A stretch of 34,682 bases of DNA from a virus (Duplodnaviria; Caudoviricetes), in IMG/VR virus record IMGVR_UViG_3300036766_000188, positions 1-34,682 of that record. One strand, written 5' to 3'. A model generated the notes under the pieces. The model did no database searches and was not told where the DNA came from. It saw only the letters and a list, made by a program, of their open reading frames with translations. The translations under genes were made by a program, and so were the position numbers. Below are positions 1 through 34,247 of the stretch, piece by piece (position 1 is the first letter of the stretch; every line of letters starts with the position of its first letter).

Positions 1-777
1 AGCGAAGCCGGTGGTGTGGTGTTCGGCGAATTTACTATATCCGATCATGGAACTACTTGCCCAAACCCCGCTACACTCTGGAGAACTGGATGGACTCCAC
101 GTGAAGGTCTTGACCCTCATGATGCAAGACCCTCCGTATTTTCGATTGTGGCATTGAAGGAGAAGGGAGGTTTAACGTACGCACTTGCTCTTAGAACTTT
201 CAATTTAGATTCCAAGTCGGTGGATGGTACTTTGGAACAGATTCGGTCCATTAGACAGTTGATGCAATATGACCAGCCAGATAAAATTGTTTTAGATGCC
301 AAGTACGGTGTTAAGAAAAACAAGTCCGGGCAAACCTGGGAACAAATGCTTAGTGAAAACGACGAGCCGGTGGAATTAAGTTTCTCAAACCCCGGAGCTA
401 TTGAGTTTGGGCACAAGATTATTCGTGATTTTTTGAGGAAGGACGACGGCTCGCCTCGGTTGTTAGTTGACTTGGAAGGCGCAGAAATGTTAATCACTTC
501 CTTTCAACGCTATTCATATGATGAATTTGGAAGGGTGCGAGAGAACTACAAAGACCCAATGGATACTTTAAGATACATTATTACCTCGGGTCCACCCACA
601 CCTGTTTTTAATTTAGAACAGGCGGAGAAGATTCCAAGTTGGACACAGATGATAAATGCAAGTGCGCCCTTGCCAAGTGTGAGGGGAATGAAGATGAACC
701 CAACAATGGAGGATAAGGCTCTTGAGGAGGGGATTTTTTATGGTCCTTCCGCTTCTCAGGAAATGCCTTCCTTATAA
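1..777 (+). CDS. terL: Terminase large subunit, C-terminal nuclease domain (5' truncated)
   Basis: Frame is open from base 1 (SEAGGVVFGEF). RNase H-like motifs GLDPH, IVLD and a terminal DPMDTLRY. Lies upstream of the portal. Confidence 0.85.
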   Translation, partial: SEAGGVVFGEFTISDHGTTCPNPATLWRTGWTPREGLDPHDARPSVFSIVALKEKGGLTYALALRTFNLDSKSVDGTLEQIRSIRQLMQYDQPDKIVLDAKYGVKKNKSGQTWEQMLSENDEPVELSFSNPGAIEFGHKIIRDFLRKDDGSPRLLVDLEGAEMLITSFQRYSYDEFGRVRENYKDPMDTLRYIITSGPPTPVFNLEQAEKIPSWTQMINASAPLPSVRGMKMNPTMEDKALEEGIFYGPSASQEMPSL

Positions 778-805
778 ACAAAACTAAGAAAGAGGAGAAA
801 CAAAA

Positions 806-1099
806 ATGGGCGATAGAGATTTAGTAGGTGGTCGGATGGCACGGCACATGCAGTTGCTCCAGAAGGTCTCTGCTGCGGCAAGTTCAGTACACACTCTGGA
901 CCCTCCTGCCGTTGCCGTGTTGAATGTGTTTGTAACCTCTGGTGGGGCCTTGATGACTCCCTTGATGCCTGGGACTACCCCCACCACTGGCAAGTATACT
1001 TGGAACCCTAAAATAAACAGCATTGCTTTCTACTCAACTGAGGGTGATAGCGGCGCAGCTACCATCGTTTACTTGGCGGAGGCCGGTGGTGTGGTTTAA
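806..1099 (+). CDS. Hypothetical protein, possibly virion-associated
   Basis: 97 aa ORF with strong SD AAGAAAGAGGAG, in the morphogenesis operon. Confidence 0.75.
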   Translation: MGDRDLVGGRMARHMQLLQKVSAAASSVHTLDPPAVAVLNVFVTSGGALMTPLMPGTTPTTGKYTWNPKINSIAFYSTEGDSGAATIVYLAEAGGVV

Positions 1100-1463
1100 G
1101 TCAAAGGACAAAGAAAAGGCCAAAACTACCGAACGCCTACTCACTTTAGAGGCGGCCATTTCCAATCTTCGTAGGCGTTTACGAGAAACCAAGCGAGAAT
1201 TGGATTTAGTAAAAAGTGACCAGCACAAGTTCGAGCGAGAGTTACTTTTGAAACTTGGCCGCCTTGAAGGTGTGTTGGGAATTGGTTTAAGTGGTGGTGT
1301 GGAGGGTGGAGAAAATCTTCCAAATCCCAATGTTGGACTTGAGTTTGAAAAGCGCAGGCAGGAAGAAGAAGCCGAGCGGATTGCACTTGAGCAACTTGGC
1401 ACAGGTGGTTCCGCTCAGTCAATGGCACCGGCGATTGTTAAACGAAGCGAAGAAGAGGAATAG
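1089..1463 (+). CDS. Hypothetical coiled-coil protein
   Basis: ORF track gives 1023..1463. GTG at 1089 follows GGAGG (1078-1082) and is the likelier start. Heptad-like LEAAISNLRRRLRETKRELDLV. Confidence 0.7.
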   Translation: MWFKSKDKEKAKTTERLLTLEAAISNLRRRLRETKRELDLVKSDQHKFERELLLKLGRLEGVLGIGLSGGVEGGENLPNPNVGLEFEKRRQEEEAERIALEQLGTGGSAQSMAPAIVKRSEEEE

Positions 1464-1474
1464 GTTAATAACAA

Positions 1475-3520
1475 ATGGCGGACTTTGGTCAAAAACCAAC
1501 AGACTACGACCCCGAAATTGGCAATGATGAAGAGGAAGTAAATCGAAATATTGCTAATTGGGTTGAAGAGAAGTATAAAGAGGACTTTGATACGAAGGTC
1601 CAACTTCAACACGTCTGGGCGGAGAATATCCACTTCTTCGCTGGCAATCAGACAATTTGGTTTAACCAAGCCTCGTCTCAGTTGCAGTCTATTACTTTGC
1701 CCACTGGTCAAGGTCCAAGGCAAATGACCAATCGCTTCTCTCCTTCAATAATGCAAGTAGTAGCAGATTTAACGAGAACAGAACCTGCTGCTACTGTCTT
1801 GCCCGATGCCAACACACCGGATGCGACTCTTAGGGCAAAGTTAGCGGAGAAGTTACGATATAAAATGTGGGACGACCTGGACGAGAACATGATGCAGATT
1901 TTTCTTGCTCTTTGGTTGTCCCTCACAGGAACAGGAGTTAAGGAAAATGCTTGGTCTTCTCATTTAGGGGATGTAACCTCCACTGTTTACGGGCCTTTTA
2001 ACCTTGGTATGCCTTCCTCCGCCAACGAACTTTTCTTCGAGCATAACACACCTTGGATTGGAAAGTGGACTATTCAGCCTTTGGTGTGGGTGCAGGAAAT
2101 GTATTCGCAGGAAAGTGAAGGGTTTTTCCCGCAGAACGCTAAGGACTTATCTGGGGAAGTGCCACAAGGCCCACTTTACACACTTTGGACTTTGAGGCAG
2201 GCTATTCCTCGATTGGGCGCACTTATAGGTGGGATGACCATTCCCAAGGGCGATTACTCAATTCTTAAAGAGGTTTACTTACAACCCAATGATACCTTTC
2301 CACAAGGCCGTTACTATGTAGTGGCCAATGGGAAACTCCTCTACAAAAGTGACTCACCTTACTTTATTTCTATAGGTCAAAGAAATGTATGGAACCCTTT
2401 CACTGTCTTTAAATACATTCCTTCCTTGGGTCGTTTTTTCGGCTGTTGCCCTGCTGATGATTTGGTTCCTCTCCAACGAAGACTAAATCAAATCCACGCT
2501 CAACTTGCTATCATTCGGAGGAAGATGGGCGGACCTCAATGGACTGTACCCTCACAAGCCAAAGTGCCTCAGTCCTACATTTCGGGGGATGCAGGTCTTG
2601 TAATTCGTTACACAGGCAACGCCTTTGGTAAACCCGAGAAGGTCGAGGCGTCAAATGTGCCTGTGTCGCTTTGGCAGGAAATTGAACAAATTGAAAAAGA
2701 CATGGGTTTGATTGCAGGTGATGTTGACGTGCTGCGGGCGCACCAACCTCGTGGTGCTCGTGGTGTTCAGGCCCTTCAATTAATGACTGAGATTGTGAGT
2801 AGTCGGCGGTCTCCCACTATTACCTTATGGGAAAAACAAATTGCAAAGTCCGAGCGGCTTAAATTGTTGATTTACAAGAAATATGCCCAGCAAGAAAACA
2901 CCGCTCGCTTGATAGTTTATGAAAATGAGTTTGGTCGACCGTTTATTGAGAACTTCTTCGGGGATCAAGTACCTGTCTCTTTAAGAATTGAGGCTGGTTC
3001 GACTATTCCTAAATTACAAGCGGCGCAGCAGCAACAGTTGTTAGCCGGGTTCAAGATGGGATTGTTCGGGCCTCCTGACGATCCGATGGTTACTAAAGCC
3101 ATTGCAGGTAAACTTGGAATGGGCGAGATTCAAACTTCGATGGAGACGGATATTAGAAAAGCAGAGTTGGAGAATAGTGCTATCTCCTTGATGCTGTTTC
3201 AGACTGTTGACTTTTTGCCTTTTGACAACCACCAAATTCATATTCAAATTCACACAATGGAAGTTAAACAACCGGGGTTTAAAGAGGCGCACCCAAATAG
3301 TATAACCTTTATGATTCAGCATATTCAACAGCACATGATGGCTGCGGCTGCAATGGAAAAACAGGCCATGCAGCAAAGAGTGCAGGAAGCATTGTTGAAG
3401 GCTGTAGGAGAACAGGCATTGAAACCACCTCCGGCGGAGGCAAATAAGGCAGGGTTGGACGGGGCAACAAAGACAGATAAACCTGCACCTTCCCATACTA
3501 ATGATGGTGGACAAAGTTAG
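1475..3520 (+). CDS. Portal protein (P22/podovirus-like)
   Basis: 681 aa after terL. Portal-like features: FFAGNQ, NRFSPSI, GRFFGCCPADDLVPLQRRLN, and a Q-rich helical C-terminus with DNHQIHIQIH. Confidence 0.9.
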   Translation: MADFGQKPTDYDPEIGNDEEEVNRNIANWVEEKYKEDFDTKVQLQHVWAENIHFFAGNQTIWFNQASSQLQSITLPTGQGPRQMTNRFSPSIMQVVADLTRTEPAATVLPDANTPDATLRAKLAEKLRYKMWDDLDENMMQIFLALWLSLTGTGVKENAWSSHLGDVTSTVYGPFNLGMPSSANELFFEHNTPWIGKWTIQPLVWVQEMYSQESEGFFPQNAKDLSGEVPQGPLYTLWTLRQAIPRLGALIGGMTIPKGDYSILKEVYLQPNDTFPQGRYYVVANGKLLYKSDSPYFISIGQRNVWNPFTVFKYIPSLGRFFGCCPADDLVPLQRRLNQIHAQLAIIRRKMGGPQWTVPSQAKVPQSYISGDAGLVIRYTGNAFGKPEKVEASNVPVSLWQEIEQIEKDMGLIAGDVDVLRAHQPRGARGVQALQLMTEIVSSRRSPTITLWEKQIAKSERLKLLIYKKYAQQENTARLIVYENEFGRPFIENFFGDQVPVSLRIEAGSTIPKLQAAQQQQLLAGFKMGLFGPPDDPMVTKAIAGKLGMGEIQTSMETDIRKAELENSAISLMLFQTVDFLPFDNHQIHIQIHTMEVKQPGFKEAHPNSITFMIQHIQQHMMAAAAMEKQAMQQRVQEALLKAVGEQALKPPPAEANKAGLDGATKTDKPAPSHTNDGGQS

Positions 3521-3524
3521 GTAG

Positions 3525-4481
3525 ATGAATCAACTAACTGATCAAATCTTACAGGCACTTCCCTTCTCCCTGCCACAGCGAGATGATAAGTGGAGTGACT
3601 TCCTTCCTCCAGTGGAAGGAAAAATGGGTGATGGCTTTACTGCTCGTCGGGCACATGGACAACACAATGGGGGAGATATACACGCTGCGCCTGGGACACC
3701 TGTTGTTGCTCCTCGGGATATGGTTTACTTGTATGGGGGTAAAGGCGGTACAAATCTTAGGAATAACGACTATTGGGCGCACTTTAAAGACCCAGAAACG
3801 GGCAAGGAATATCGGTTCGTCCATATGTCAGGTGTGCCTAAGTTAAACCCTGGAGATGTGGTTAAACAGGGCGAGCAATGGTCAACTGTGGGCAATGTAG
3901 TTGACAACCCACACATCCACATGAGTGTCTATAATCCGAAGGAAGGACAGTCGGAGGATTGGCCGAGTGCTTTGGGCTTGACACAAGGGCGGGTTACGAT
4001 TGCAAGTAATCCTCAATTAGAACGGCGTATTGCATCGGTGGCGTCTACTATTCCACAACAGAGTGAACCTCGAGGCGAATCAATCGCCTTTGAGAAAGGA
4101 GGACGGAGTTATATGGACCCTTCAATGTTAGCAGCTGGTGGTTTTGGTGCGTCTATTCCAGGTCTTGACATTGGGAACTTGTCTGAGGGGATTAGTCAAG
4201 GTAGAGACACTCAACAAAGTTTCCTTGGACAAGTCCTTGAGGCTCTTGGGTCTTACGGTAAGAAAGACGGCGGACTTGGTGGTACGATTGGTGGTATGGC
4301 CGGTGGGGCCGCTGTGGGTGCTGGAGTTGGTGAACTTGCCGGAGATGTTGTCAAGTTATTGATGCTAAACAAAGCCGACAAAATGGCCCGACAGCATGCT
4401 GGTTGGCTTCAAAACATAGCAGCGAATCCTCCTCGACCGGATTGGGCGAGGGGAATGAGTGGTCCCGGGTTGAATACATAA
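3525..4481 (+). CDS. M23-family Zn metallopeptidase fused to a Gly-rich C-terminal region
   Basis: HNGGD (HxxxD), GTPVVAP, FVHMS, VKQGE and PHIH (HxH) motifs. C-terminal glycine-zipper-like GGLGGTIGGMAGGAAVGAGVG. Confidence 0.85.
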   Translation: MNQLTDQILQALPFSLPQRDDKWSDFLPPVEGKMGDGFTARRAHGQHNGGDIHAAPGTPVVAPRDMVYLYGGKGGTNLRNNDYWAHFKDPETGKEYRFVHMSGVPKLNPGDVVKQGEQWSTVGNVVDNPHIHMSVYNPKEGQSEDWPSALGLTQGRVTIASNPQLERRIASVASTIPQQSEPRGESIAFEKGGRSYMDPSMLAAGGFGASIPGLDIGNLSEGISQGRDTQQSFLGQVLEALGSYGKKDGGLGGTIGGMAGGAAVGAGVGELAGDVVKLLMLNKADKMARQHAGWLQNIAANPPRPDWARGMSGPGLNT

Positions 4482-4509
4482 AAAAGTAAAAACAAAGGAG
4501 ACAAGACAA

Positions 4510-5394
4510 ATGTGTTGGTTTACTTTAATGAATCAAGAACCTTGGCAAAAGTGGTTTAAGACAAATTCAAGTATTCTCTCCGATAGTGAGGAAGGCGGAG
4601 GGGGTGGCGGTGCCCCGTCAGGTGACGCACCCGCTGGCGGGGTGCCTTCTTCTCCTACTGAGGGAGGAACGCCTGCCAGTGCGCCCACCGAAGGTGCGCC
4701 TACCGCTCCAACTCCTCCCGCTGCTCCAACTCCTTCCACTGCTCCAGATTCTGCTGCAATGTGGCGGGAACAAGCTGATTATATGCGGGGTGAATTGCAG
4801 CGGACAACGGCAGCTTTACAGCAGGTTTTAAGACAACAGCAAGATGCATCTCCCGCTGGTGTGTTTACTCCCGGGGGGAAACCGGGTGATTTGTTCAATA
4901 TCGACGAGAAGGAGTTGGCGAATCTTCATCCTGCTGTGCAAGCAATGTTCCGTGCCATGAAGGAATTGCACGAGAATGTAGGGGGGATTAAGACTCAGTT
5001 TGATCAAACAACCCGAGCCACTGCTGTGGAGAAAGAAGCGCAACAATTAAGAGAAACTGAAACTGCACTTAATGCTTATATTGATACTTCCTTGGAAAAT
5101 GCCCAGCTTCCTAAAGGGGGCACCTTGACAAACATGGTGAGTCGGGTTGCTCTTCAATCTCTTCGCAACTTACACTCACAAGGCTATGCAATTACTCGAA
5201 GTGTTATTGACAGTGTCGTGGGGGATTTAGTATCCTCAATCAAGCAAGACATGGCACCTAAACAACCAACCACCCTCCCGCCTCAACCGAAACCAGGTGG
5301 TGGGGGAAATCCACAACTTCCAGCAGTGCCTACTGCCGCTGATCGTAAGGCGGCTTTAACGGCAGCAATATCATCATTTTCTACGGAGGATTAG
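4510..5394 (+). CDS. Capsid scaffolding protein
   Basis: Pro/Ala/Gly low-complexity N-terminus followed by coiled coil, immediately upstream of the capsid gene, SD AAAGGAG. Confidence 0.75.
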   Translation: MCWFTLMNQEPWQKWFKTNSSILSDSEEGGGGGGAPSGDAPAGGVPSSPTEGGTPASAPTEGAPTAPTPPAAPTPSTAPDSAAMWREQADYMRGELQRTTAALQQVLRQQQDASPAGVFTPGGKPGDLFNIDEKELANLHPAVQAMFRAMKELHENVGGIKTQFDQTTRATAVEKEAQQLRETETALNAYIDTSLENAQLPKGGTLTNMVSRVALQSLRNLHSQGYAITRSVIDSVVGDLVSSIKQDMAPKQPTTLPPQPKPGGGGNPQLPAVPTAADRKAALTAAISSFSTED

Positions 5395-5400
5395 AAAGAA

Positions 5401-6600
5401 ATGGCCATCGATTATGCATCTCTTGGTGGAATCATCAAGAAAGTCTACGACAAGAACTTTATCACCAACCACATTGTGGAAGAAAGCTTCCTCTATGACA
5501 AGATCAGTGTGGCAGGTGATAAACCGGCAGGCGAAGGTTATTACTTCGCTGGGCGTTTTGCCCGGAATCAGGGTGGTGGGTCTCAGAATGAGAAAGAGGC
5601 TCTTCGTCAGAGTGGCGCACCTTTGATTAAACAGGCTTATATTCTGCCCAAGGTGTTTACTTGGACTGGTCAGTTAACCGGCTTGGCCGCAGCGATGGCT
5701 AAGGGTGAACCAGGGTCGTTTGCTAACATTATGGACGATGCTTTCACTGATGCTTTGGCGGCGGCAAGGCAGGATTTGGACCGGCAGTTCTATGGGATTG
5801 GTGATGGGAAGGTTGGCACTGTTTCTGGAACTGTTACCTCCGCCACTCAGACGGTGGACAACCCGCTGAACTTCATGCCGGGGGCCTACTATGACCAGTA
5901 TGCTGCTGCTGGTACCTTGACGGCGAGTGGTTTGTTGGTTAGCGACATTGATCCCTTCGCTATGACCGTAACTTTCTCGACTTCTGTTACGGGCACCACT
6001 CTTGACTATTATGTCAAGCAAGGCATGAAGATCAATGCCCCTGCCGACGGCAAGGAAATGATGGGTATCCGAGGGATCATCGACGATGGTTCCAAGGTGG
6101 ACCTATTCGAGGGTCTCTACCGGGCTTCTTCCACTTATTACAAACTGTGGAGGGGATTGGTTATCGCCGCTGGTTCTGTGGACTTGACCGCTGATATTCT
6201 CCGCAGGGCCAGTGACCGCTTGCAAGTAATGGGTTGCAAGAATCCGCTACTTCTGAGCAACTTCGGCCAGCGGCGCAAGTATTTGTCCTTGGTCCAGCCG
6301 CAGCGGCGTTTTATGGACGCCAAGTTTGATGCTGGTTATTCCATCCTGGAGTGGGATGGCAAACCTTGGTTTGTCTCCGCACGGTGTCCCAAGGGTGCTG
6401 TGTATCAGCCTAACTTCTCCAACATTCAGAAGTTTGAGGTTCTTCCTCTTCAACTGGATACTACGGGTGGCACTCTCAAACCCTTAACCGGCTACGATGT
6501 GGCGTATTTCTACTATAAACAGTACGCCAATCTTGGTAGCAAACAACCCAACCAGGCGGGTATCGTAATTGAAGGTTTGAACGAGCCCACTTATTACTAA
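5401..6600 (+). CDS. Major capsid protein (HK97 fold)
   Basis: 399 aa after the scaffold. DLDRQFYGIGDG and EMMGIRGII are typical of uncultured podovirus capsid proteins. Double stop codon. Confidence 0.9.
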   Translation: MAIDYASLGGIIKKVYDKNFITNHIVEESFLYDKISVAGDKPAGEGYYFAGRFARNQGGGSQNEKEALRQSGAPLIKQAYILPKVFTWTGQLTGLAAAMAKGEPGSFANIMDDAFTDALAAARQDLDRQFYGIGDGKVGTVSGTVTSATQTVDNPLNFMPGAYYDQYAAAGTLTASGLLVSDIDPFAMTVTFSTSVTGTTLDYYVKQGMKINAPADGKEMMGIRGIIDDGSKVDLFEGLYRASSTYYKLWRGLVIAAGSVDLTADILRRASDRLQVMGCKNPLLLSNFGQRRKYLSLVQPQRRFMDAKFDAGYSILEWDGKPWFVSARCPKGAVYQPNFSNIQKFEVLPLQLDTTGGTLKPLTGYDVAYFYYKQYANLGSKQPNQAGIVIEGLNEPTYY

Positions 6601-6632
6601 TAACTTTAAGTTGGTAGAAAGAGGAGTCCCGG

Positions 6633-7103
6633 GTGAGCATACCAGCTTATTTGGCCCAAGAGATGCACTCCCTGGACCCAAGGCTCTTTGTTGATTTCAA
6701 TGGTGCTTTGGGTCTATGGGAAGTTCGCCTCTTCTTAAAGGAGAGTGAATGCAACTTGGAGGGGATACCTCGGCTTGAAGCTAAGGAGGTTTTCCCTGTG
6801 ATTGGTCTTGGCAATGTGGTGGAGTTACGCCCGACCTCAATTTGTGTAAAGCGAGTGCAAACTCAAACCGGTCTTTACAGACCCTTTGATATGGACGTTA
6901 TTAACTACTTGAAAAAGATTGACGTCCATCGCTGGGGGCGTTTGAAAGACTGGCTTGATTTTGTGGATAACATTGGCAAAGGTGAAATTGAAAGTAAACG
7001 AGCCCTGAGTAGTGAAAGTCGAGTAAAACAAATAAAGGCAGACTGGCACTCTGCTCATGTTGAAAGGAGATTCATTGACTATGGCCACCATGTATGTGTT
7101 TAA
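6633..7103 (+). CDS. Hypothetical protein
   Basis: 156 aa, GTG start after SD AAAGAGGAG. Confidence 0.75.
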   Translation: MSIPAYLAQEMHSLDPRLFVDFNGALGLWEVRLFLKESECNLEGIPRLEAKEVFPVIGLGNVVELRPTSICVKRVQTQTGLYRPFDMDVINYLKKIDVHRWGRLKDWLDFVDNIGKGEIESKRALSSESRVKQIKADWHSAHVERRFIDYGHHVCV

Positions 7104-7608
7104 TCCAACAAAGGAACACGTGACTCGAGAGTTAGGTGGGAAGGAATACTACATTCCTGCTGGTAAGGTAATTGAAGTCGATCAGGGGATGGGCGAGTTC
7201 CTTATTGAAGCCAGAGGAGAAATGGCCGGTATTCCTCCGGGGGGAACAACTTGGTTTGGTTTAGTTCCTCTAACGCCTGATGACAAAGTGGAGGAAGTGG
7301 CAAAGAGGGGATTGGAGAATTGGAGTCGCTTGTTGAATCATCGACTTCTTTCTATCGACAATCTTATTCAAGAAGGTACTTCTCCAGATGGGAAACAAAG
7401 TTTCTCAGTGATGCAGTTGCTAAAAGACCCACGAATTTTAAAGTGGAAGGCAGACTTGCAGTGGGTTGAGGACGTGCTGGCGGGGAAGGTCGAGTATGAT
7501 GCCTCAGGTAATGTGGGTGAGTCCTTGAGCAAAGAGGTGAAACCAAAACGTGCGCCAAAAGGAGTTGATATTGTCCAGCAAATGGACAATTTAGACTCTA
7601 CAATTTAA
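7081..7608 (+). CDS. Hypothetical protein
   Basis: ORF track gives 7057..7608. ATG at 7081 follows SD GAAAGGAG. Confidence 0.75.
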   Translation: MATMYVFNPTKEHVTRELGGKEYYIPAGKVIEVDQGMGEFLIEARGEMAGIPPGGTTWFGLVPLTPDDKVEEVAKRGLENWSRLLNHRLLSIDNLIQEGTSPDGKQSFSVMQLLKDPRILKWKADLQWVEDVLAGKVEYDASGNVGESLSKEVKPKRAPKGVDIVQQMDNLDSTI

Positions 7609-7634
7609 AGTTGAGTGGAAAGGAAACTCTTACA

Positions 7635-26344: not shown

Positions 26345-27723
26345 TAGATTTTAATCCCCTCAAATTGAAGTTTAGCCATTTTGTAAAAACTCTCATTACT
26401 ATCAATTGCCCAACACTTCCTCTTTAATTGTTGACACGCACGAGCCGTCGAGTAAGACCCGGCAAATGGGTCAAGCACACTTTCGCCTTCCTTAGTTGAG
26501 GTTAACAACAACTGCTCGATCAAACCCTCGGGTTTTTGTGTAGAATGAAACCGGCCAGTGAAAGGCACCTGGAATTCATAGACGTTTCTCGCCGATTCGT
26601 GTAGCAGGGGCCTATCCCCCTTCCAGCCGTAGAGAATTGACTCATAGGAAAGAGAGTGACGAGTTATGTTTGAAGTGGATAAGATGTTCTTCTTGTACCA
26701 AATTAAAGGAATTTCCTCAATTAAAAACCCGGCCAGTTTGAGTAATTCAAACCCCTCCTGTATTTTGTCCGGGAAGGAAGAGTAAAACATATAAATACCC
26801 CGGTTAGGACGTAGGCAAAGGAAGGAGCGTTGTAGAATAGATAGTAAAGTCATTGGATCAATACCGTCTACTGATCCCTCCTCTGTGTCTTGACCCCTGC
26901 CTTGATTATATATCTGGGCTCGGTCATGAGACAGACGGTCTATTAAACCAATATCCCAAGGTGGATCTGTTATAATAAGGTCGAAGGATTCGAAGGGGAA
27001 CTCTTTTTCATTGAGTAGTAGCTCTTCTGACTTCCCACAAAAAAGGTGCATGTCTTTAGGAGCGTCTTGCTTACCTATTTCAAGAAAGTCTGCCACTTGT
27101 TCATAAGCCTGACGCTTCATTTTTATCTTAGCCGATGAACGGCGCTTGATATCCCCGAGGAGAGGATCGCCCTTGAGTTGCCGAGCCATTTGTATTTCTT
27201 CTCCAAGGGTGGCCTTGGACTTACCTACAAGGTTGGCAGTGTCTTGAAGAGACCAGCCAGTTTTACCTCGACCTACAGTGCCTTTGCCATGTTGCTGAAT
27301 GCAAAGTTCATGTATCTCATTGAATAATAAACAACGCTCTTGCCAAACAAAGTCTTTACGGTCAACGTTTTCCACAAGTTCATAGAGTTTGCGTTCAGTT
27401 TCGGTGAGGTTATACTCGATTTTACAAGGGATTTGAGACCACTCGGCAAGGAGTTTGGGGGTTGGTTTGTTGTCTCCTACCCACACAAGAGGATTAGCAC
27501 AAAGAATTTCTCGAAGGGCTCGGTAGCGACGCTCACCAGCGACGAGGTCAAATTTCTCTGGAGTGCTTGAGCGACTTGGTTCCACTACGACATTTTGCTT
27601 TAACCCCCCTGCTGCGAGGATCGAGCGAGCAAAGCCTTCAATATCGCCAAAGTCCTTGCGGGTTCGCTCCGGTGGGATTAGGATGTTGTGGTGGTTGATT
27701 AACTTGAATTCGAATTTAGGCAC
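26344..27723 (-). CDS. ParB N-terminal domain + HTH fused to an amino (N6-A/N4-C) DNA methyltransferase, class beta
   Basis: ParB: RTRKDF, LVAGERRYRA, ELVENVDRKD. HTH: WSLQDTANLVGKSKATL. MTase: IITDPPW, HSTQKP, VLDPFAGS. GTG start at 27723 follows AAGGAG (ORF track start 27762). Confidence 0.92.
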   Translation of the reverse strand: MPKFEFKLINHHNILIPPERTRKDFGDIEGFARSILAAGGLKQNVVVEPSRSSTPEKFDLVAGERRYRALREILCANPLVWVGDNKPTPKLLAEWSQIPCKIEYNLTETERKLYELVENVDRKDFVWQERCLLFNEIHELCIQQHGKGTVGRGKTGWSLQDTANLVGKSKATLGEEIQMARQLKGDPLLGDIKRRSSAKIKMKRQAYEQVADFLEIGKQDAPKDMHLFCGKSEELLLNEKEFPFESFDLIITDPPWDIGLIDRLSHDRAQIYNQGRGQDTEEGSVDGIDPMTLLSILQRSFLCLRPNRGIYMFYSSFPDKIQEGFELLKLAGFLIEEIPLIWYKKNILSTSNITRHSLSYESILYGWKGDRPLLHESARNVYEFQVPFTGRFHSTQKPEGLIEQLLLTSTKEGESVLDPFAGSYSTARACQQLKRKCWAIDSNESFYKMAKLQFEGIKI

Positions 27724-28690
27724 TTTGTTCTTCTCCTTCTCCTTCTTCATTCTTTCCTTCAATGAATCCTTGGTAAGGCTTCCACGAGTCCACGTAATAA
27801 TCCTGCTCTACTAAACCCCGAGGCCAATCCCTCGTGCAAAGGTCAAGGTAAGGACAGGCAGAGTTCCAACTAAAACAATTCCCCGTGTTTCTTTCCCATT
27901 GCAAGTGAAGGCGCTCTTCCAGAACTTGCTTTAAAGTTTCCTCGGGATTGGAAAGAGAAGGAGACAAGCGCCCCCAACTCTTTAACTTCTGGCGGATTTC
28001 CATTGCAATCGACAAAGTAGAAGTGTGCCAATCTTTCAATTCCCAAGATTGAATCTCAATGTTTTTAACTTCCATACCGTCGCCGGTGGTGGGATAGGTG
28101 GTCTTAGGTGTTTTTTCCACGCCGAAGGCTAACAAGCGAACACTCGGCGCACTCCAAGGAGCGGCATAGCCAATGGTTTGATTGTGTGCTTCCCAAGAGC
28201 GGAGGTATTTATCAGGTGTGCCTTTTTCATAAAGACGCAGGGTTGTTTTGAACTCCCAGGGGATTACGCCGTTCTCGTCGGAGCGCACACGGTCAATTCG
28301 TCCAGCGTGTACTACCTTACTTGTTAAAGGAACCATGAAAGGCACTTCGATCTCGTGGGGTTTAAAGTAAATTCCGTTGAGTTGCGTGTATTCAGCATAA
28401 AGAGCCAGTAACTCCTGCGCCCTCTCAGGAGTTCTTTTCTTTTCATAAGGCCCACACTCGTAATTGTCCACGAACAAACCAAAGGCTTTTTGAAAGTCTT
28501 GAGTATGGTCAAACATCTCAGTGCAAAGGTGAAAAGCCTTTCCGAAGTCGAGACCGGCTTTTGAAATAGGGGACCAAAGTCGAAGGCCGCAAATATAACG
28601 AGCAAGGAATTTGCGGTGGCAATTTTGGTACGATTGCCTCATGGAGTGGTCGAGGATTAGGGGCACTGCTTGTTCCGGGCGGTTGGGCAT
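27716..28690 (-). CDS. PD-(D/E)XK exonuclease, Cas4/AddB-like with probable Fe-S cluster
   Basis: DHS..QSYQNCHRK, FGKAFH, GRIDRV, WEFKTT, QTIGY and C-terminal C-x6-CPY-x3-C. Start 28690 follows AAAGGAG. Confidence 0.88.
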   Translation of the reverse strand: MPNRPEQAVPLILDHSMRQSYQNCHRKFLARYICGLRLWSPISKAGLDFGKAFHLCTEMFDHTQDFQKAFGLFVDNYECGPYEKKRTPERAQELLALYAEYTQLNGIYFKPHEIEVPFMVPLTSKVVHAGRIDRVRSDENGVIPWEFKTTLRLYEKGTPDKYLRSWEAHNQTIGYAAPWSAPSVRLLAFGVEKTPKTTYPTTGDGMEVKNIEIQSWELKDWHTSTLSIAMEIRQKLKSWGRLSPSLSNPEETLKQVLEERLHLQWERNTGNCFSWNSACPYLDLCTRDWPRGLVEQDYYVDSWKPYQGFIEGKNEEGEGEEQSA

Positions 28691-28692
28691 TT

Positions 28693-29319
28693 TTATTTCT
28701 CCTTTTGACAATTAAAACAAACTCTCCAAGAATTCTTATTTTTTACTCCACAATTACCACAAAGCCAAAAACCTTGGTCCCAGCCAGGTTCTTTTTCTTT
28801 GGGGGAGGGTCCAATAGGTTCATAGGCGCACTTCACACAGCAGCCATAGTAAAGAATGTCTTTTTCTGTTGAAGGTCCGCCACATTGGGGACACTGTTTC
28901 GATTGTGCGCCTTTGAGAAATTCGAATAGATAACCCTGGGCGTTGAAGAGAATGGCACACAAGGATTCTTCCCGGGAAACATCAGTTATATTACCTCTAT
29001 GACACAACCAAAGTTCCATCATGTGCCTCAACAAACTTTTCATATAAACTTCTTTAGGTATGCCCTTCTGCCAGTTGTCGCTTTTTCTTATACAGCCGTC
29101 GGTTTGGACTTGATGCTTCCTCATGTATTGAGCAAAGCGTTGGAGGACAAGCGGTGAGAGGAAGCCTTCATAATCAAGTTTGTCTTTGTCCGTGTCTCGA
29201 GTTGCACCCGTTTCAAAGGTGCGAATCGGCGGGGTTGGTACAGGGTTGACTCCACTTATTCCATACAAACAACTACACTCTATTTTTCCACACATACGGC
29301 AGGGTTCAGAATGGGGCAT
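28693..29319 (-). CDS. dATP/dGTP diphosphohydrolase-like (DUF5664, MazG-like fold) protein with Zn-finger extensions
   Basis: RTFETGATRD, DNWQKGIP, SLLRH and LCAILFNA. Flanking CxxC pairs. Start 29319 follows AAAAGGAG (ORF track start 29376). Confidence 0.85.
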   Translation of the reverse strand: MPHSEPCRMCGKIECSCLYGISGVNPVPTPPIRTFETGATRDTDKDKLDYEGFLSPLVLQRFAQYMRKHQVQTDGCIRKSDNWQKGIPKEVYMKSLLRHMMELWLCHRGNITDVSREESLCAILFNAQGYLFEFLKGAQSKQCPQCGGPSTEKDILYYGCCVKCAYEPIGPSPKEKEPGWDQGFWLCGNCGVKNKNSWRVCFNCQKEK

Positions 29320-29340
29320 TTTGTTGGGCTCCTTTTCTTT

Positions 29341-29376
29341 AACAAAGAAGGTGCGCCACTTCTCACCCTGGCGCAC
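29341..29376 (-). terminator. Possible intrinsic terminator or attenuator after the SSB-like gene
   Basis: 8-bp GC-rich stem GTGCGCCA/TGGCGCAC with a 10-nt loop, followed on - by CTTCTTTGTT (weak U tract). Confidence 0.45.
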
Positions 29377-29441
29377 GAGTTGGCTTAATTAAAAGTCAAC
29401 ACTGTAAATGTTCTGTGCCACCATAATTAAGCCCCTACAAT

Positions 29442-29999
29442 TTATTCCCTAACCGCCCACGCCTTCAACACGTTCATGAACTCCCCGCTCTTATCTGGGC
29501 CGTACTTGACCTTGCACCGCAACCCGACAAACCGCTCAGGGACCAGTTGACCAGTCTGTTCGTCCAGGAACTCTGGGAAGATGGTAATGTAGCGTTTTGT
29601 GCCTTTCTTTTCCATCTTTGCCGCTCCGAGAGCAACAAGGAAGGAATCAGTAAATCCCCGAGGCGAGAAAGGCCGGCCAGTCTTGGCCTCGATAGCTTCC
29701 TTGGCTTGCTTGGAGGCCCAATACATCGTGTTGTGGAAGATAACCCGACCCTCTTGTTCGGGGTGGCCTACGATTTCCAACTGGAAACCAAGGGATTTGA
29801 ACTTGGCCTGCTGAGTATCAGGATCAACTGAGGTCATCCACCACTTAGTGGGGTCGGTGCGCTCAGCTACTTCAACGAGGTAATCTCCGGCGGGTACATC
29901 GTCCAGTTCGCTGGGTTTGTCCCAACTGGTATCGTCGCCAGGCTCGTTGCCTTCCATGGTGTTGCCGTAGTTTTCTTCTTCCTGTGCCGCTTTAGCCAT
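29442..29999 (-). CDS. Probable single-stranded DNA-binding protein (DUF669-like OB fold)
   Basis: VPAGDYLVEV, FQLEIVGHPEQEGRVIFHN and FVGLRCKVKY, next to Sak4-like and exonuclease genes. Confidence 0.7.
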   Translation of the reverse strand: MAKAAQEEENYGNTMEGNEPGDDTSWDKPSELDDVPAGDYLVEVAERTDPTKWWMTSVDPDTQQAKFKSLGFQLEIVGHPEQEGRVIFHNTMYWASKQAKEAIEAKTGRPFSPRGFTDSFLVALGAAKMEKKGTKRYITIFPEFLDEQTGQLVPERFVGLRCKVKYGPDKSGEFMNVLKAWAVRE

Positions 30000-30000
30000 T

Positions 30001-30160
30001 TGGTTTTTCCTTTTTCCTTTTTTAGTTTTTTTTTTTTTTAGTTTTTTTTTGTTTTTTTGTTTTTTTTTTTGTTTTTTAGTTTTTTTTTGTTTTTTTGTTT
30101 TTTTTTTTTGTTTGTTTGTTTGTTTGTTTGTTTGTTTGTTTGTTTGGTTTAGTTGATTGA
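30001..30160. repeat. Low-complexity T/G tract: poly-T blocks plus a (TTTG)n microsatellite
   Basis: Read directly. On - it is an A/C-rich leader of the SSB-like gene. Confidence 0.9.
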
Positions 30161-30165
30161 GTTAA

Positions 30166-30372
30166 TTAAGAAACATCCAATTCCGCAAGTTGTTGCAGAA
30201 TAAGAACCTCCTCCTCAATAGTAAGTTCTTTACTTTTCTTTTTTCTCTGGCTTTTTAACCCTCCTTCTTTTTTCGTTTTTGATTTTGATTTAGAAACAAG
30301 AGCCGTGCGCTTCTTGCCTACAAGGACTTGCAATTCGTCAATGAGGGTTTGTTTAAGTTGAGGGAAGTTCAT
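30166..30372 (-). CDS. Small Lys-rich hypothetical protein
   Basis: 68 aa, abuts the upstream stop, GAGAGG SD-like sequence. Confidence 0.7.
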   Translation of the reverse strand: MNFPQLKQTLIDELQVLVGKKRTALVSKSKSKTKKEGGLKSQRKKKSKELTIEEEVLILQQLAELDVS

Positions 30373-31269
30373 TTATTTATCAATGCCTCTTTCCCAAATG
30401 TCTTCAATTAAAGCCCAATCTTCCTTATAGTCCTCGGGCAATGTAATCGGTTCTTTAAACCTACGCGACCTATCCTTGGCTTCCCAATGTTTACCTTTGT
30501 TGAAGTTTAAAACTCGAACCTCCTTTAATTCCTGTGGTCCAGCAGCGGCTCTTAAATCCACCACCTTAACATCGGTCATTTTAGTAGGGGGCGCAGTGAT
30601 TCCCTCCAAGTGAATAAAACCTATAAGAGGGAAAAGGTCAACAATTCGAGCGTAAGTAGACCGGGCTGAACCACCAATGAAGGATGGGACCCATAGGTTG
30701 TAGGTAGTACCTTTGAAGCTGACCTGGGAATTAACTGAACGGCAAGATGCTACAAATCCTTTTCCGGCACGACGACATTCGGCCATTAGATGTGAGATGG
30801 GGGTCATGTAGTCCTTGGTGAAATTCCCCCAGGTTTTGCCCATGTCGCCTCGTCCTTGTGCGCCAGCCTCGGAAGGGTGAGTAACTCCCCATTTATCGCA
30901 ACTCACATCCCAGGACCACTCATAAGCAGCGTGTAAGTGGTCAATACAAATGTAGGCAAAATTGGGGCTTATAACTGCGAGTTTGCAATAGTCAAGAAAT
31001 TCCTTCCAGTTTTTCGGACTTACACGGTAATTAGAGTGCGCCATCATGGATTGAGAAGGGTCGCAGTCAATGTAAAGAACCTTCTCTTTCTCTTTAGTGT
31101 CTTGCTTGTCAAGGTAGTGCTGGATAGAGGCAAGTAAAGAAGAACAGCCAATCCCCGGGCCTACACCATAGACAAGCATAGCGTAGTCCTTAAGGGAGGT
31201 TTGTGCAGGTTGGCGAGTTGTGGGAAGAGTAACCGAAGAGGGCACACCCGGGCGATTTAGAAAAGCCAT
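30373..31269 (-). CDS. AAA_24 / Sak4-like recombination ATPase with degenerate Walker A
   Basis: MLVYGVGPGIGCSSL, VLYIDCD, ICIDHL, GKTWG and WEAKDRS. SD AAAGGAG. Confidence 0.8.
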   Translation of the reverse strand: MAFLNRPGVPSSVTLPTTRQPAQTSLKDYAMLVYGVGPGIGCSSLLASIQHYLDKQDTKEKEKVLYIDCDPSQSMMAHSNYRVSPKNWKEFLDYCKLAVISPNFAYICIDHLHAAYEWSWDVSCDKWGVTHPSEAGAQGRGDMGKTWGNFTKDYMTPISHLMAECRRAGKGFVASCRSVNSQVSFKGTTYNLWVPSFIGGSARSTYARIVDLFPLIGFIHLEGITAPPTKMTDVKVVDLRAAAGPQELKEVRVLNFNKGKHWEAKDRSRRFKEPITLPEDYKEDWALIEDIWERGIDK

Positions 31270-31294
31270 TTTATTGCTTTCTCCTTTTTTTTAA

Positions 31295-31528
31295 TTAAAA
31301 GTCAATAATAGACCTTATGGCCCTTTCAATATCAGAACGCAGTTGTTGCAACAACAAAAGGTCATCTGGTCGATTTGCGTTAAACCTAATTTTAAGACTA
31401 TTGAAAATTCCGTCAGTTATGTTGGGGCCCTCTTGTATTACTATGGTACAAAAGTCGCCGCAAGAGTTAAATTGTGAGGTTCTTTCTCCTGTTTTTACGT
31501 CTCCATAAACATCACTGATAATTTCCAT
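31295..31528 (-). CDS. Hypothetical protein
   Basis: 77 aa, SD AAAAGGAG. Confidence 0.75.
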   Translation of the reverse strand: MEIISDVYGDVKTGERTSQFNSCGDFCTIVIQEGPNITDGIFNSLKIRFNANRPDDLLLLQQLRSDIERAIRSIIDF

Positions 31529-31553
31529 TTTATTCTCCTTTTCCCTCTTAAAT

Positions 31554-31937
31554 TTAACTAACTAACCCCGGGCCACTAAAAACCATCATTTCCCGTGCCT
31601 GGACAATCACCCAACTCTCTTGTGTATTTATAGTAAAAGAAAACCACTGGTCTTTGTTCTCGTCAATTAAAATCCTGTCTAACACTGAATGGGCAAGACG
31701 AAAGGCGCACTCTTTACTTCCCAGCGGCATCATTTTAGTAAAGAAACTCTCTGGTTCCCCATTGTTGTTTAAGAACTCTATCTTGTTTTGTGGTTTGTCC
31801 TCTGGGGAGGATTTGAAGGTTGAGCAATAAGCGTCAATGAATTGGAGATTGGAGGTGCGCCTTTTAAGCTCTTGAAGCTCGGAGGCGTAAAGGCGTAGGA
31901 GAGTAATAGCACCAATTTCTGTTATTTTCTGTTTCAT
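31554..31937 (-). CDS. Hypothetical protein
   Basis: 127 aa, SD GGAG. Confidence 0.75.
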   Translation of the reverse strand: MKQKITEIGAITLLRLYASELQELKRRTSNLQFIDAYCSTFKSSPEDKPQNKIEFLNNNGEPESFFTKMMPLGSKECAFRLAHSVLDRILIDENKDQWFSFTINTQESWVIVQAREMMVFSGPGLVS

Positions 31938-31940
31938 TGT

Positions 31941-32159
31941 TTACTCCACACCAATGAGTTTTAAAATCCAATGATAAATTGGTGGTTGAATTAACCCTAC
32001 TACTACCCCGCAACCGAAAGAGAAAACAGACCCAGCAATAATTGCACAGCCAAGCAAAAACCCTGTGTGCCGGTCAAGCCAATCCGAGGGACGAGGTGCA
32101 AGAGGCCAACCTTGCCATTGTTGTGGGTCTTTGTATCGGTTTTTGTATTGGTTCTTCAT
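31941..32159 (-). CDS. Small membrane protein
   Basis: 72 aa, SD AAAAGGAG, hydrophobic segment GFLLGCAIIAGSVFSFGCGVVVGLI. Confidence 0.75.
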   Translation of the reverse strand: MKNQYKNRYKDPQQWQGWPLAPRPSDWLDRHTGFLLGCAIIAGSVFSFGCGVVVGLIQPPIYHWILKLIGVE

Positions 32160-32304
32160 TTGCTTGTTTCTCCTTTTCCTTTATTTTCTTTTTAAAAGAA
32201 GGCCCGGGGTGTTTTAACGTTGGATTTAAGGGCCGGAGCCTCCGGGCAACCCAACGGCTCTTCAAGGAAGGGAATACTTGAGGAGCAATTTGTGTTTTAT
32301 TCAT
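32074..32304 (-). CDS. Possible small basic protein
   Basis: ATGA coupling to the upstream gene, but it overlaps the downstream gene by 86 bp. Confidence 0.45.
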   Translation of the reverse strand: MNKTQIAPQVFPSLKSRWVARRLRPLNPTLKHPGPSFKKKIKEKEKQANEEPIQKPIQRPTTMARLASCTSSLGLA

Positions 32305-32519
32305 TTAACTTTAACCACCACGCCGTCTTTCAACACCGCTTGTGCATACCACTTGTGGGGTTCTGGATAATGTGGGCCTTCTAAGTAAACCGTGCCGGTG
32401 AAGTTAGAAAGGTTAGGACCTAATCCTAATCCGGGTTGGTAACACTGCACTACTTCTCCACTTGCTACAGCGTCTTTTAACGCCTTTTTGGTTTTGTAAT
32501 TTGTGCAAGTGTAGGCCAT
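32301..32519 (-). CDS. Small phage hypothetical protein
   Basis: NYKTKKALKDAV...LEGPHYPEPHKWYA, SD AAGGAGG. Confidence 0.85.
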   Translation of the reverse strand: MAYTCTNYKTKKALKDAVASGEVVQCYQPGLGLGPNLSNFTGTVYLEGPHYPEPHKWYAQAVLKDGVVVKVK

Positions 32520-32524
32520 GTTGT

Positions 32525-32728
32525 CTATCTACCCTCCTTTTTAGACCAATTAAAACTTCTACTCATGTTCCTTTTCTTTTCCGTGTCCGTCATCTGCACT
32601 TTACAAAGTGCGCCCATCGTCCTCGTTTTTAATAATTCCTTGACTTCATTTATCAACGCCTCGGTTACTGTCTCCGGGGCTTTGATATTCAACACCACAT
32701 AGCGAGGTTTGTAGATTGAGGGGTTCAT
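32525..32728 (-). CDS. Hypothetical protein
   Basis: 67 aa, SD AAAAGGAG. Confidence 0.75.
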   Translation of the reverse strand: MNPSIYKPRYVVLNIKAPETVTEALINEVKELLKTRTMGALCKVQMTDTEKKRNMSRSFNWSKKEGR

Positions 32729-32754
32729 TTTTTTTTCTCCTTTTCTTTTAAACT

Positions 32755-33030
32755 TTAAATTTGAAGGGTTAACTTACTTAATATTTTACCGGTATTGTCC
32801 CACATGTCTGCTAAAGTATTTTCGTTTGGCTGTGGCCAATACTCCCTAAGATAATTGGCTTTTAAATAACATACTTGCTCTATTGCTTCTATTACTGTAT
32901 ATACACAATTCTCATCAATTAGTTTTTCTATTTCTTCAACTAATATATCAAACCGAGCTTCTTCCTCTTTAGAGGACACTTGCGCTTCAATCATACTATC
33001 AGTTACGCCAGGAGGTAGATTACTTAACAT
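32755..33030 (-). CDS. Hypothetical protein
   Basis: 91 aa, SNLPPGVT N-terminus of a type common in early phage genes, SD AAAAGGAG. Confidence 0.8.
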   Translation of the reverse strand: MLSNLPPGVTDSMIEAQVSSKEEEARFDILVEEIEKLIDENCVYTVIEAIEQVCYLKANYLREYWPQPNENTLADMWDNTGKILSKLTLQI

Positions 33031-33112
33031 TTTATTCTCCTTTTCTTTTCTTTTATTTTCTTTTCTTTTTAATCCTTTTCTTTTCTTTTCTTTTCTTTTC
33101 TTTTTACTCCTT
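33031..33112. repeat. (TTTTC)n pyrimidine tract, (GAAAA)n on -
   Basis: Read directly. Intergenic, contains two AAGGAG and one AAGGA on -. Confidence 0.85.
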
Positions 33113-33119
33113 TTAATAC

Positions 33120-33596
33120 TTAATCCATGTTTAAAGAAGCAAGAAAGGCTGAAATCGTTGATTCATCCAGGGGCTTGCTTTGCACTCTTAGAGTGCGCCT
33201 TTTGCCTCGGCCAAAACTTGAATCTCGGGGTGCGCCCCTCACAACTCCATCCTTGTCTTTACTAAACCTCCCAATTGCTTCGGCCTCAAGCCGTTGACGT
33301 TCAATCCTTGCTTGCAAGTCGTCGCCTTTTTCTCTTAATGAACGGCGCCACGCTCTTACCCTAACCTCAGTTTCAACTTCATCGAACCGTTGTTTTGCTT
33401 CGAGGTATTCTTGAAGTTTCTGTTGACGCACTTTTATAAGTGCATCTTGAGGTAAATCCGAGTAAAGACCAGAGGGGCAATCGTCGGTGGTTTTTGTTGG
33501 TTCTTTTTCCATTTCAACCACCTTTCTTTGCACTTCCTTTTCAACCATTTCCTTTTCAACCACTTGCACTTCTTCTAAGTGCGCCTCTTGGTTCAT
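33120..33596 (-). CDS. Charged coiled-coil hypothetical protein
   Basis: 158 aa, SD GAGGAGG, short VVEKE-type repeats. Confidence 0.8.
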   Translation of the reverse strand: MNQEAHLEEVQVVEKEMVEKEVQRKVVEMEKEPTKTTDDCPSGLYSDLPQDALIKVRQQKLQEYLEAKQRFDEVETEVRVRAWRRSLREKGDDLQARIERQRLEAEAIGRFSKDKDGVVRGAPRDSSFGRGKRRTLRVQSKPLDESTISAFLASLNMD

Positions 33597-33598
33597 AA

Positions 33599-34066
33599 CT
33601 AACCCTCCTCACGTTCCTGAGTGTTGTTAATTAAAGAAGTCAAACTTGATATTCTGCGCTCTTCAAACTGCCGAATAAATTCCTCCATTGCCTTGTCTTC
33701 TTCCTTTTGTTTAGCCAACCGTCGTTCTTCCTTGCACTTCCTTGCGTAAGCCATTTTTTCTTTAATACCTTTTTGCACTAACCGCCTTTCCTTTCTTATT
33801 TCTTTTAAGGACTTTCCTTTTTCTTTCATGGCCTTTCTATCCACTAACCCCGCTGGACGTGTATCTCCAAAGAATTCAACATAGCGCCCACCTTCCTTAA
33901 AAATAACCTTTTTTAAATTGCGCCGGTTCCGTGCGTATTTAGCGGCACAAGTTTTATGTTGTGCAGTACCATCATCATAAACAATGACTAAATTACCGTA
34001 ACAATCTTTTTCTGAAAGACAGAAACGGCAAATTGGGGGTTTTACTGGTGTGTTGGTGTTATTCAT
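33599..34066 (-). CDS. Basic hypothetical protein with N-terminal Zn finger
   Basis: CRFC...HKTC. ATG at 34066 or 34081. Confidence 0.75.
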   Translation of the reverse strand: MNNTNTPVKPPICRFCLSEKDCYGNLVIVYDDGTAQHKTCAAKYARNRRNLKKVIFKEGGRYVEFFGDTRPAGLVDRKAMKEKGKSLKEIRKERRLVQKGIKEKMAYARKCKEERRLAKQKEEDKAMEEFIRQFEERRISSLTSLINNTQEREEG

Positions 34067-34073
34067 TGGTTTT

Positions 34074-34247
34074 TTATCCATGCTGTTTTTGCTGCGCTCG
34101 TAGAGCTAAAACAGCAATGCGCCTTTCTTTTGTGTGCCAGGCATTACGACATTTATCGCAACAAAATTTACTCCAAGGTTTAGGGGGAGTAAATAACTCA
34201 AGACACCATTTGCAAATTCGGGTTTCTATTTCTTTTTCTTTAAACAT
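34074..34247 (-). CDS. 57-aa treble-clef-like Zn-finger protein (not in the ORF track)
   Basis: Hand translation MFKEKEIETRICKWCLELFTPPKPWSKFCCDKCRNAWHTKERRIAVLALRAQQKQHG*. AAAGGA upstream. Confidence 0.8.
   Translation of the reverse strand: MFKEKEIETRICKWCLELFTPPKPWSKFCCDKCRNAWHTKERRIAVLALRAQQKQHG

Follow-up and report, generated by a model that had tools for sequence, protein, structure and literature searches.

The viral contig IMGVR_UViG_3300036766_000188 (IMG/VR; Caudoviricetes) carries the heptamer GGCGCAC in 36 copies dispersed through its genome. The excess is confirmed to be real, to be independent of frame, strand and region, and to act at the DNA level. We tentatively interpret GGCGCAC as the recognition site of a replication protein encoded by the phage itself, the candidate being the predicted C-terminal winged helix of its helicase, so that the copies would be genome-wide origin iterons; our probability for this interpretation is about 0.35. 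The window below is the whole contig, 34,682 bases with a GC content of 44.2% (about 44% had been estimated in the sequence-only reading, an earlier inspection of this DNA that had pointed out the iterated word); its sequence occurs in a sediment metagenome run.

Overrepresentation of GGCGCAC

Under an order-2 Markov model, 13.2 copies of GGCGCA/TGCGCC are expected and 58 are found (31 on the plus and 27 on the minus strand), while for GGCGCAC the numbers are 2.7 and 36; the other endings are GGCGCAG (14 copies), GGCGCAA (5) and GGCGCAT (3). GGCGCA and GGCGCAC rank first among the 6-mers and 7-mers of the window, respectively, GGCGCAC reaching 1.04 per kb, about seven times what the genes explain, and AAGTGCGCC is present in 11 copies. 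Earlier hand counts were close to these values (56 GGCGCA, with 35, 14, 5 and 2 copies for the endings C, G, A and T), and all 23 positions named with them are in the computed list. The related palindromes are scarce, GGCGCC being present twice, not once as had been noticed, and TGCGCA never.

662..33585, both strands: dispersed GGCGCAC, 36 copies (16 on +, 20 on −)
2216, 2737, 3286, 3776, 5614, 10349, 14685, 16808, 17714, 21490, 25266, 25666, 28146, 28825, 29370, 31704, + strand: GGCGCAC
662, 4679, 4694, 7550, 8679, 11078, 12489, 17421, 20685, 24435, − strand: GGCGCAC (GTGCGCC on +), first ten
26041, 28905, 29351, 30858, 31036, 31855, 32608, 33193, 33230, 33579, − strand: GGCGCAC (GTGCGCC on +), other ten
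between 478 and 30596: GGCGCAG, 14 copies
29350..29377, + strand: inverted pair of GGCGCAC (the sole one), 8-bp stem and 10-base loop

Synonymous shuffles keep every protein, and hence every dipeptide. In the 33 kb of coding DNA they give 3.5±1.8 copies of GGCGCAC (maximum 9 of 500), or 5.0±2.0 if the next base is also kept (maximum 12 of 500 shuffles), compared with 34 observed. The excess thus persists under both the Markov and the codon-shuffle nulls, a check that the sequence-only reading had proposed, and it is not explained by a single dipeptide. Each of the six frame/strand classes is raised 3- to 15-fold. The word occupies 35 of the 79 sites permitted by synonymous choice, whereas four control words of similar make-up use 0/93, 2/118, 3/69 and 1/42 of their chances.

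Under the codon null, positions 1–6 of the word are sharp, whereas at position 7 the excess declines by degrees from C (35 vs 5.7) through G (14 vs 3.9) and A (5 vs 3.2) to T (3 vs 3.3). No preference is seen at the flanking positions −1 and 8, all four bases at position 8 being 4- to 8-fold up, and an AAGT flank resembling that of uptake signal sequences disappears. A preference for TT after the word, and with it a likeness to AAGTGCGGT, had been suggested earlier; since there is no such preference at position 8, the likeness is a by-product of the AT-rich genome.

The excess is similar in the head, tail, replication and early regions (4.7- to 7.6-fold, codon null), so the raw crowding of copies toward the early region and the right end (13 of 36, P 0.013) reflects opportunity, and it is gone under the codon null. 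The inverted pair folds, as had been proposed, into a hairpin at 29351–29376 (−11.9 kcal/mol for 29335–29395, z −3.14, 0/200 shuffles). A search for gapped motifs in the window gave nothing new.

Loss of short recognition words is what one expects of phages, and where gains are known (Chi, uptake sequences) the host is their source. The window phage avoids CTAG (0 vs 24.6 in coding DNA), CGCG (3 vs 29), CTGCAG (0 vs 11), CTGAAG (2 vs 19) and also AGCT; therefore ordinary restriction-type words are lost by this phage. Two relatives described below, G379 and G380, likewise avoid CTAG and CGCG.

Words of related phages

Four short contigs with 72–89% DNA identity to the window carry 8 copies of GGCGCAC in 6.4 kb. 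Two of these sites are common with the window, and four are at places that lack the word in the window or fall beyond the alignment, while one window site is lost; copies come and go in close relatives while the level stays. Contigs of two runs, X1 and X2, agree with the window sequence. Among more distant capsid relatives (30–41% identity), 0 of 36 loci are rich in GGCGCAC.

The replication module of the window consists of Sak4, exonuclease, ParB/methyltransferase, PolA and helicase genes, and 12 relatives share it in whole or in part (G379–G385, G389–G392 and L041). Three of the 12 have other words, in line with the earlier suggestion that the excess acts on DNA and that the word may differ between relatives. 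In particular, the close pair G379 and G380 is rich in CCCATG (46 vs 17.7 and 90 vs 33.6 expected, respectively), with all six positions specific and 46/87 and 90/150 of the synonymous chances used. In G384 the word is CG[CG]CGCG (65 vs 21), combining CGCCGCG (36 vs 10.4) and CGGCGCG (29 vs 10.6). The words of all three genomes are on both strands, in all frames and dispersed, and in the four word-bearing genomes the density on each strand is one site per 1387, 1111, 986 and 1081 bp. Turnover is again observed, as in the 16.1 kb that can be aligned between G379 and G380 (79.8% identity) 24 sites are common and 12 and 11 are private; G380 keeps 24 of the 36 G379 sites in the aligned DNA, compared with 31.5% for hexamers in general, a difference to which ATG frames may contribute.

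Several weaker candidates were rejected. TCGGCC in G382, CAGGCC in L041, GTCTCCG in G383 and CGGCGG in G392 have log10 P from −5.0 to −5.3; since 42 control loci span −3.0 to −5.9, these words were not counted. As the control loci are shorter (11–20 kb coding) and thus not a matched control, the comparison does not show that words go with the replication module. GCAGGAG in the sister contigs L171/L172 is background (Markov 19 vs 2.6, codon null 11 vs 3.2), and TTCTGGG/GGGAACG in G387 is a coding tandem repeat. Paired-word scans of 121 of about 1500 genome loci, of 27 viral loci and of 120/121 viral loci gave no dispersed excess, their power being low, and single-protein scans of viral contigs gave nothing. 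A capsid scan for the G380 clade in 3 of 64 parts found distant phages only, and for this reason the co-variation set is small.

Helicase and junction clusters

The rightward arm of the window (1–20,719) contains the end of the large terminase gene, portal, capsid and tail genes and SU10-type adaptors. The leftward arm (20,768–34,081) contains the genes for the helicase, a double helix-turn-helix (HTH) protein, PolA, the ParB-HTH-methyltransferase, the exonuclease, a likely single-strand binding protein (SSB) and Sak4. The contig begins within the terminase gene and so includes neither the small terminase nor the place where the arms meet.

21225..22586, − strand: MCM-like AAA+ helicase (Pfam DUF3987, E 2.8e-12) with a predicted C-terminal winged-helix-type domain, the proposed word reader
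22871..23359, − strand: double HTH_17 gene, with DNA-level matches that indicate the likely host class
23329..25857, − strand: family A DNA polymerase with UDG-like and 3'-5' exonuclease domains
26344..27723, − strand: ParB-HTH fused to a beta-class N6/N4 DNA methyltransferase (DPPW and FAGS motifs)
27716..28711, − strand: PD-(D/E)XK exonuclease
29442..29999, − strand: likely single-strand binding protein (weak DUF669 match, E 0.058)
30373..31269, − strand: Sak4-like recombinase (E 2.5e-17)

The PHROGs label of the helicase gene is primase; instead, we found an MCM-like AAA+ helicase without a primase domain. In structure comparison the best folds for its model (pLDDT 88.9) are MCM (E 8e-9), and the sequence matches the active helicase 5dgk weakly (E 0.22). 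Judging from the secondary structure of the model, helix-helix-strand-strand at residues 394–434, the C-terminal end is probably of the winged-helix type. Between the window, G380 and G382 this end is 19–34% identical, compared with 48–60% for the ATPase. Stand-alone helicase relatives of about 400 residues number in the thousands. Apart from the PHROG label, no primase family was found among the 43 window proteins, and none among 110 open reading frames (ORFs) of G380, G389 and L041, one of them a complete genome.

In four relatives (G379, G381, G383 and G389), copies of a single short word are clustered, in both orientations, in the non-coding DNA where early and late genes meet. The clusters are GGCATG x6 in G381, (A)CGAAG(C) x7 in G383 and CTACTA x8 in G389 (each 0/500 resamples), and CCCATG x5 in G379 (P 0.024), where the clustered word is also the one dispersed genome-wide. 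The cluster word of G383 ranks first among the hexamers of that genome (65 vs 36.5), ACGAAG being 1.8-fold up genome-wide, and about 13 copies of (GA)CGAAG(C) are found at G383:C1:14530-15075, upstream of the late arm. GGCATG of G381 is a variant that has not spread genome-wide. In the complete genome G389 (C1:26256-26332), TAGTAG blocks face CTACTA blocks across an AT-rich stretch at the junction, an array that by analogy looks like the origin of a Staphylococcus aureus pathogenicity island (SaPI).

These observations may be combined as follows. A short word would be clustered at the early/late junction of this phage family, where the origin would lie, and in some lineages copies would have been fixed genome-wide, at about one per 1.0–1.4 kb per strand. 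A self-loading helicase could then load or reload almost anywhere, for instance at forks produced with Sak4 and the exonuclease, which would serve a phage with no recognisable primase, and the word would change as the helicase wing changes. A broader version, which we find doubtful, is that in a primase-less phage family the origin iteron turned into a genome-wide, lineage-specific code of 6–7 bases, a distributed origin for start and restart by the A-family polymerase, with word and wing co-evolving.

Other observations concern neighbouring genes. The likely SSB has homologues in G379, G380, G381 and L041. Atlas searches led to the known UDG family; PolA is undivided in the window, L041, G383, G385 and G389, and is in two genes in G379, G380 (G380:C1:3771-6518, with a small ORF between the halves), G382 and G384. 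Region 28693–29376 of the window has a weak N-terminal match to dATP/dGTP diphosphohydrolase (E 0.005) and a C-terminal zinc finger, and L041 has a clear member of that family adjoining its exonuclease gene. A T-rich tract of 160 bases (30000–30160), with GTTT repeats at its end, stands between the SSB gene and the next gene, and the non-coding right end (34250–34345) has short AT-rich direct repeats of the TTTTTATCCTTTATTTTTATA type.

Likely host

The sample comprised 301 genomes from the phylum of G001, a Desulfobacterium record. The double-HTH gene (22871–23359) has DNA-level matches in six of them, five being among the ten genomes of one class; of 83 genomes from this class, 26 have chromosomal homologues with 70–94% DNA identity. 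As these matches are concentrated in one class, it is the likely host class, presumably Desulfobaccia, and the gene is a useful host marker. Five genomes selected because they had many copies of GGCGCACTT but few of control words all belong to this class too. None of the 301 exceeds about 0.02 GGCGCACTT per kb, compared with 0.32 in the phage, and the true host may be outside the sample. No CRISPR spacers against the phage were found, and short DNA matches in the host class lacked repeated 20-mers. The left 14.7 kb of the window has matches in 0 of 83 class genomes, and TSCPD homologues indicated no host. The early region of G380 has DNA matches in 0 of the 301 genomes.

Genomes of the likely host class carry 0.11–0.48 copies of GGCGCAC per kb. 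In seven of them the word is found 277 times vs 164 under the codon null (1.69-fold, ranking third of about 5,200 strand pairs), while in 30 control loci it is at background (112 vs 110, 1.02-fold). For enrichment in the predicted host, a check proposed by the sequence-only reading, this partly selected sample gives a small (1.4–1.7-fold), unpolarised excess. Self/non-self discrimination, another of its suggestions, is weakened, since the likely hosts carry the word too, at the above density vs 1.04 per kb in the phage.

Hairpins were seen in passing. The Ruminococcus metagenome-assembled genome G005 (L062, L099, L159, L160) has 374 copies of GGCGCACTT in 2.2 Mb (control 6), mostly arms of a hairpin resembling repetitive extragenic palindromes (REP), with GTAG in the loop. 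In the likely host class, G014, G056 and G312 (L214, L218, L228, L241, L245) have REP-like hairpins GGGCGCAC-N6-GTGCGCCC, often followed by CTAC.

Alternative explanations

Among the functions proposed in the sequence-only reading, a priming or loading site fits the data best. Several observations nevertheless weigh against recognition by the helicase. In nine of the 12 module-bearing relatives no word exceeds what the 42 control loci show, though all of them must replicate, and the sister L171/L172 (65% capsid identity) has one GGCGCAC in 15 kb, its replication genes not being covered. The words are not evenly spaced: ten of ten strand tests were not more even than random (lowest P 0.11), the words of G379 are clumped, and in G384 (P 0.04 and 0.33) one of two strand tests is not more even than random. 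The junction clusters were picked afterwards, as the best of 2–13 gaps per genome, and they border terminase genes too; that of G389 is partly a TAG run, that of G380 is not significant (P 0.27), and G382, G385, G390, G391 and G392 have none above 3. In the window no cluster lies directly downstream of the helicase gene, where single copies are found at 21490 and 20685, the non-coding right end (433 bases) has no GGCGCAC, and the arm junction is cut off by the contig ends. The helicase gene is missing from the G379 contig. C-terminal ends commonly evolve fast, which is no demonstration of co-variation. Finally, a phage-encoded reader does not predict the small excess of GGCGCAC in the likely hosts.

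It seems unlikely that the reader is the ParB-HTH-methyltransferase, which would load on or methylate the word, methyl-directed repair or selection for methyl marks raising the copies to about one per kb, as in Elhai's proposal for highly iterated palindromes (HIPs). This enzyme (METHYLTRANSFERASE, beta-class with ParB and HTH parts) has CcrM, N4CMT and M.BceJIV as its best folds and intact methyltransferase motifs. It is present in all three word-bearing lineages and in 11 of the 12 module-bearing relatives. Each word contains a 4-base palindrome (GCGC, CATG, CGCG) of the kind typical of methyltransferase cores, turnover and random spacing fit a drive, and we take GGCGCA to be the site of Cgl13032I and the A-then-C/G ending to fit MmeI-family sites. 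The density of 1.4–2 per kb agrees with the range known for HIPs and with the upper limit of one per 1000 nt that is predicted in PMC4390886. Against this, co-variation does not support the link suggested earlier, as 8 of 11 enzyme-bearing relatives have no word beyond the control range. CCCATG is at background in G381 (6 vs 9.0) and G382 (19 vs 16.2), whose enzymes are 53% and 59% identical to that of G380; in G382 even the three loops likely to meet DNA are 68–78% identical. Moreover, the gradation at the last base (C 6- to 7-fold, G 3.6-fold) differs from what an all-or-none site would give, the end point of Elhai's model is a palindrome, which none of the words is, and we know of no nicking partner for the methyltransferase. 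We give similarly little credence to a host protein as the reader, for example the host AddAB using the word as a Chi-like signal, the phage having become richer in it than its host, in the manner of Chi-rich lambdoid phages. This agrees with the 1.69-fold excess in the host class and its absence from control loci, with the two adjacent PD-(D/E)XK genes of AddAB size and no RecC in five of five tested host-class genomes (the name AddAB is inferred), and with a slight orientation trend along the phage (P 0.07, or 0.025 with GGCGCAG); different hosts would also explain the patchy spread of words. Yet five of the seven host genomes had been chosen for high GGCGCACTT, and the two unchosen ones give 113 vs 78.5 (1.44-fold). 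In the hosts the frame GGC-GCA-C is not raised (7 vs 6.2), the maximal-Markov rank of GGCGCAC is 2801, and replichore polarity is missing: the first 100 of 204 plus-strand copies in G310 span half the chromosome, and G312 shows none either. In the phage the copies are equally in both orientations, with no end-clustering after the codon null, and there are recombination genes of its own, absent from the Chi-rich phages according to the accessible part of PMC12315714.

Since the junction also borders terminase genes, the small terminase could be the reader. In that case the word would be a site of the small terminase or another packaging factor, with a cluster by the terminase genes, and its genome-wide copies would allow phage DNA to be selected for packaging from many starts. 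The junction clusters of G379, G381, G383 and G389 lie directly upstream of the leftward (late) arm, and G380 and G381, whose words differ (CCCATG, GGCATG), have likely small terminases that share 27% identity. This explanation is quite improbable: no homologues of the window head genes could be detected in G379, G380 or G384, in contrast to those of the replication genes, the closest structural sister is without the word, and the small terminase of the window lies off the contig. We regard as least credible a template signal for an unrecognised primase (either the polymerase aided by a small partner or an enzyme of the host) at Okazaki-sized spacing. One site per 1.0–1.4 kb per strand in four genomes would suit it; so would, in the accessible parts of the sources, the 8-base site read by the NrS-1 primase-polymerase (PMC8718748) and the ability of the A-family polymerase of CCPol-MP to prime (PMC7581432). 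Unevenly spaced words, the primase-free window proteins and ORFs of three relatives, and the 130-residue gene following the helicase, for which homology and atlas searches gave no convincing family, speak against it.

Comparison with known systems

The closest parallel to recognition by the helicase is found in the self-loading helicases SaPI Rep and Cch/Cch2 of the staphylococcal cassette chromosome mec (SCCmec). As described in the accessible parts of PMC7581432, PMC9371898 and bioRxiv 10.64898/2026.10.17.759575, their C-terminal winged helix binds element-specific iterons of 5–7 bases, the wing reading bases, and the iterons are set in opposite directions round an AT-rich stretch; Cch2 needs the AAGTG iteron in its substrate to unwind and works with a priming A-family polymerase. 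Similarly, the window has an MCM-like helicase with a predicted C-terminal winged helix beside an A-family polymerase, the words are short and non-palindromic, and G389 has opposite blocks round an AT-rich stretch. However, in those elements, so far as these texts describe them, 6–12 copies are gathered in one origin directly downstream of the helicase gene, whereas the window has 36–50 copies scattered through coding DNA and no such origin; besides, the sequence link of the window helicase is weak (E 0.22).

HIP1 and the alternative HIPs, in the accessible text of PMC4390886, are GC-rich words at 1–2 per kb, within genes and in all frames, swapped between lineages and accompanied by a methyltransferase, all of which resembles GGCGCAC; but HIPs are palindromes of cellular genomes with a matching methyltransferase, and GGCGCAC is non-palindromic and in a phage. 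In the Chi-rich phages LLS and P1 (PMC12315714, accessible part) Chi is similarly the top oligomer, at one per 1–2 kb and denser than in the host; unlike the window, LLS has 20 of 23 sites in one orientation, clustered at the ends, and no recombination module. In the window the copies are 16/20 by strand and evenly raised, Sak4, exonuclease and SSB are present, and the host copies are unpolarised. None of the five Chi motifs in the accessible text of Buton and Bobay (PMC8022716) is like GGCGCAC, and GCGC-cored octamers of unknown role are mentioned there. The primase site of NrS-1 (PMC8718748) is comparable in that a replication enzyme of the phage recognises a long, specific sequence, as is proposed for the window; the enzyme there is a primase-polymerase of the archaeo-eukaryotic type (AEP), and none was found in the window.

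The sequence-only reading had also drawn a parallel with uptake sequences, which is not borne out by the absent flank preference and by the failure to find a genome rich in the word. Uptake sequences of Pasteurellaceae and Neisseriaceae are words of 9–12 bases with an extended consensus and hundreds to thousands of host copies, many-fold over chance. The window word is similar in being non-palindromic, on both strands, in a large share of the synonymous chances and once in an inverted pair, but it has 7 bases without extended consensus, and the phage is richer in it than the host. The word resembles an iteron or a HIP in its working, yet it does not belong with clustered origins, HIPs, Chi sites or uptake sequences.

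Implications

The literature covered, mostly main texts of open-access papers, contains no report of GGCGCAC as an iterated word or of this word-bearing phage family, and the accessible part of PMC7736820 has none of the family either. In the literature on ParB-methyltransferase fusions no paper on the target of this phage fusion was found. Three different words at the same density occur in one family; therefore the window, G380 and G384 offer matched word-protein pairs that can be tested directly. Should the reader be the ParB-methyltransferase, this common phage fusion would have its first target known to us. Should it be the helicase, these would be origin iterons working scattered through genes, which would bear on the replication of phages that have PolA and DUF3987 proteins and no recognisable primase.

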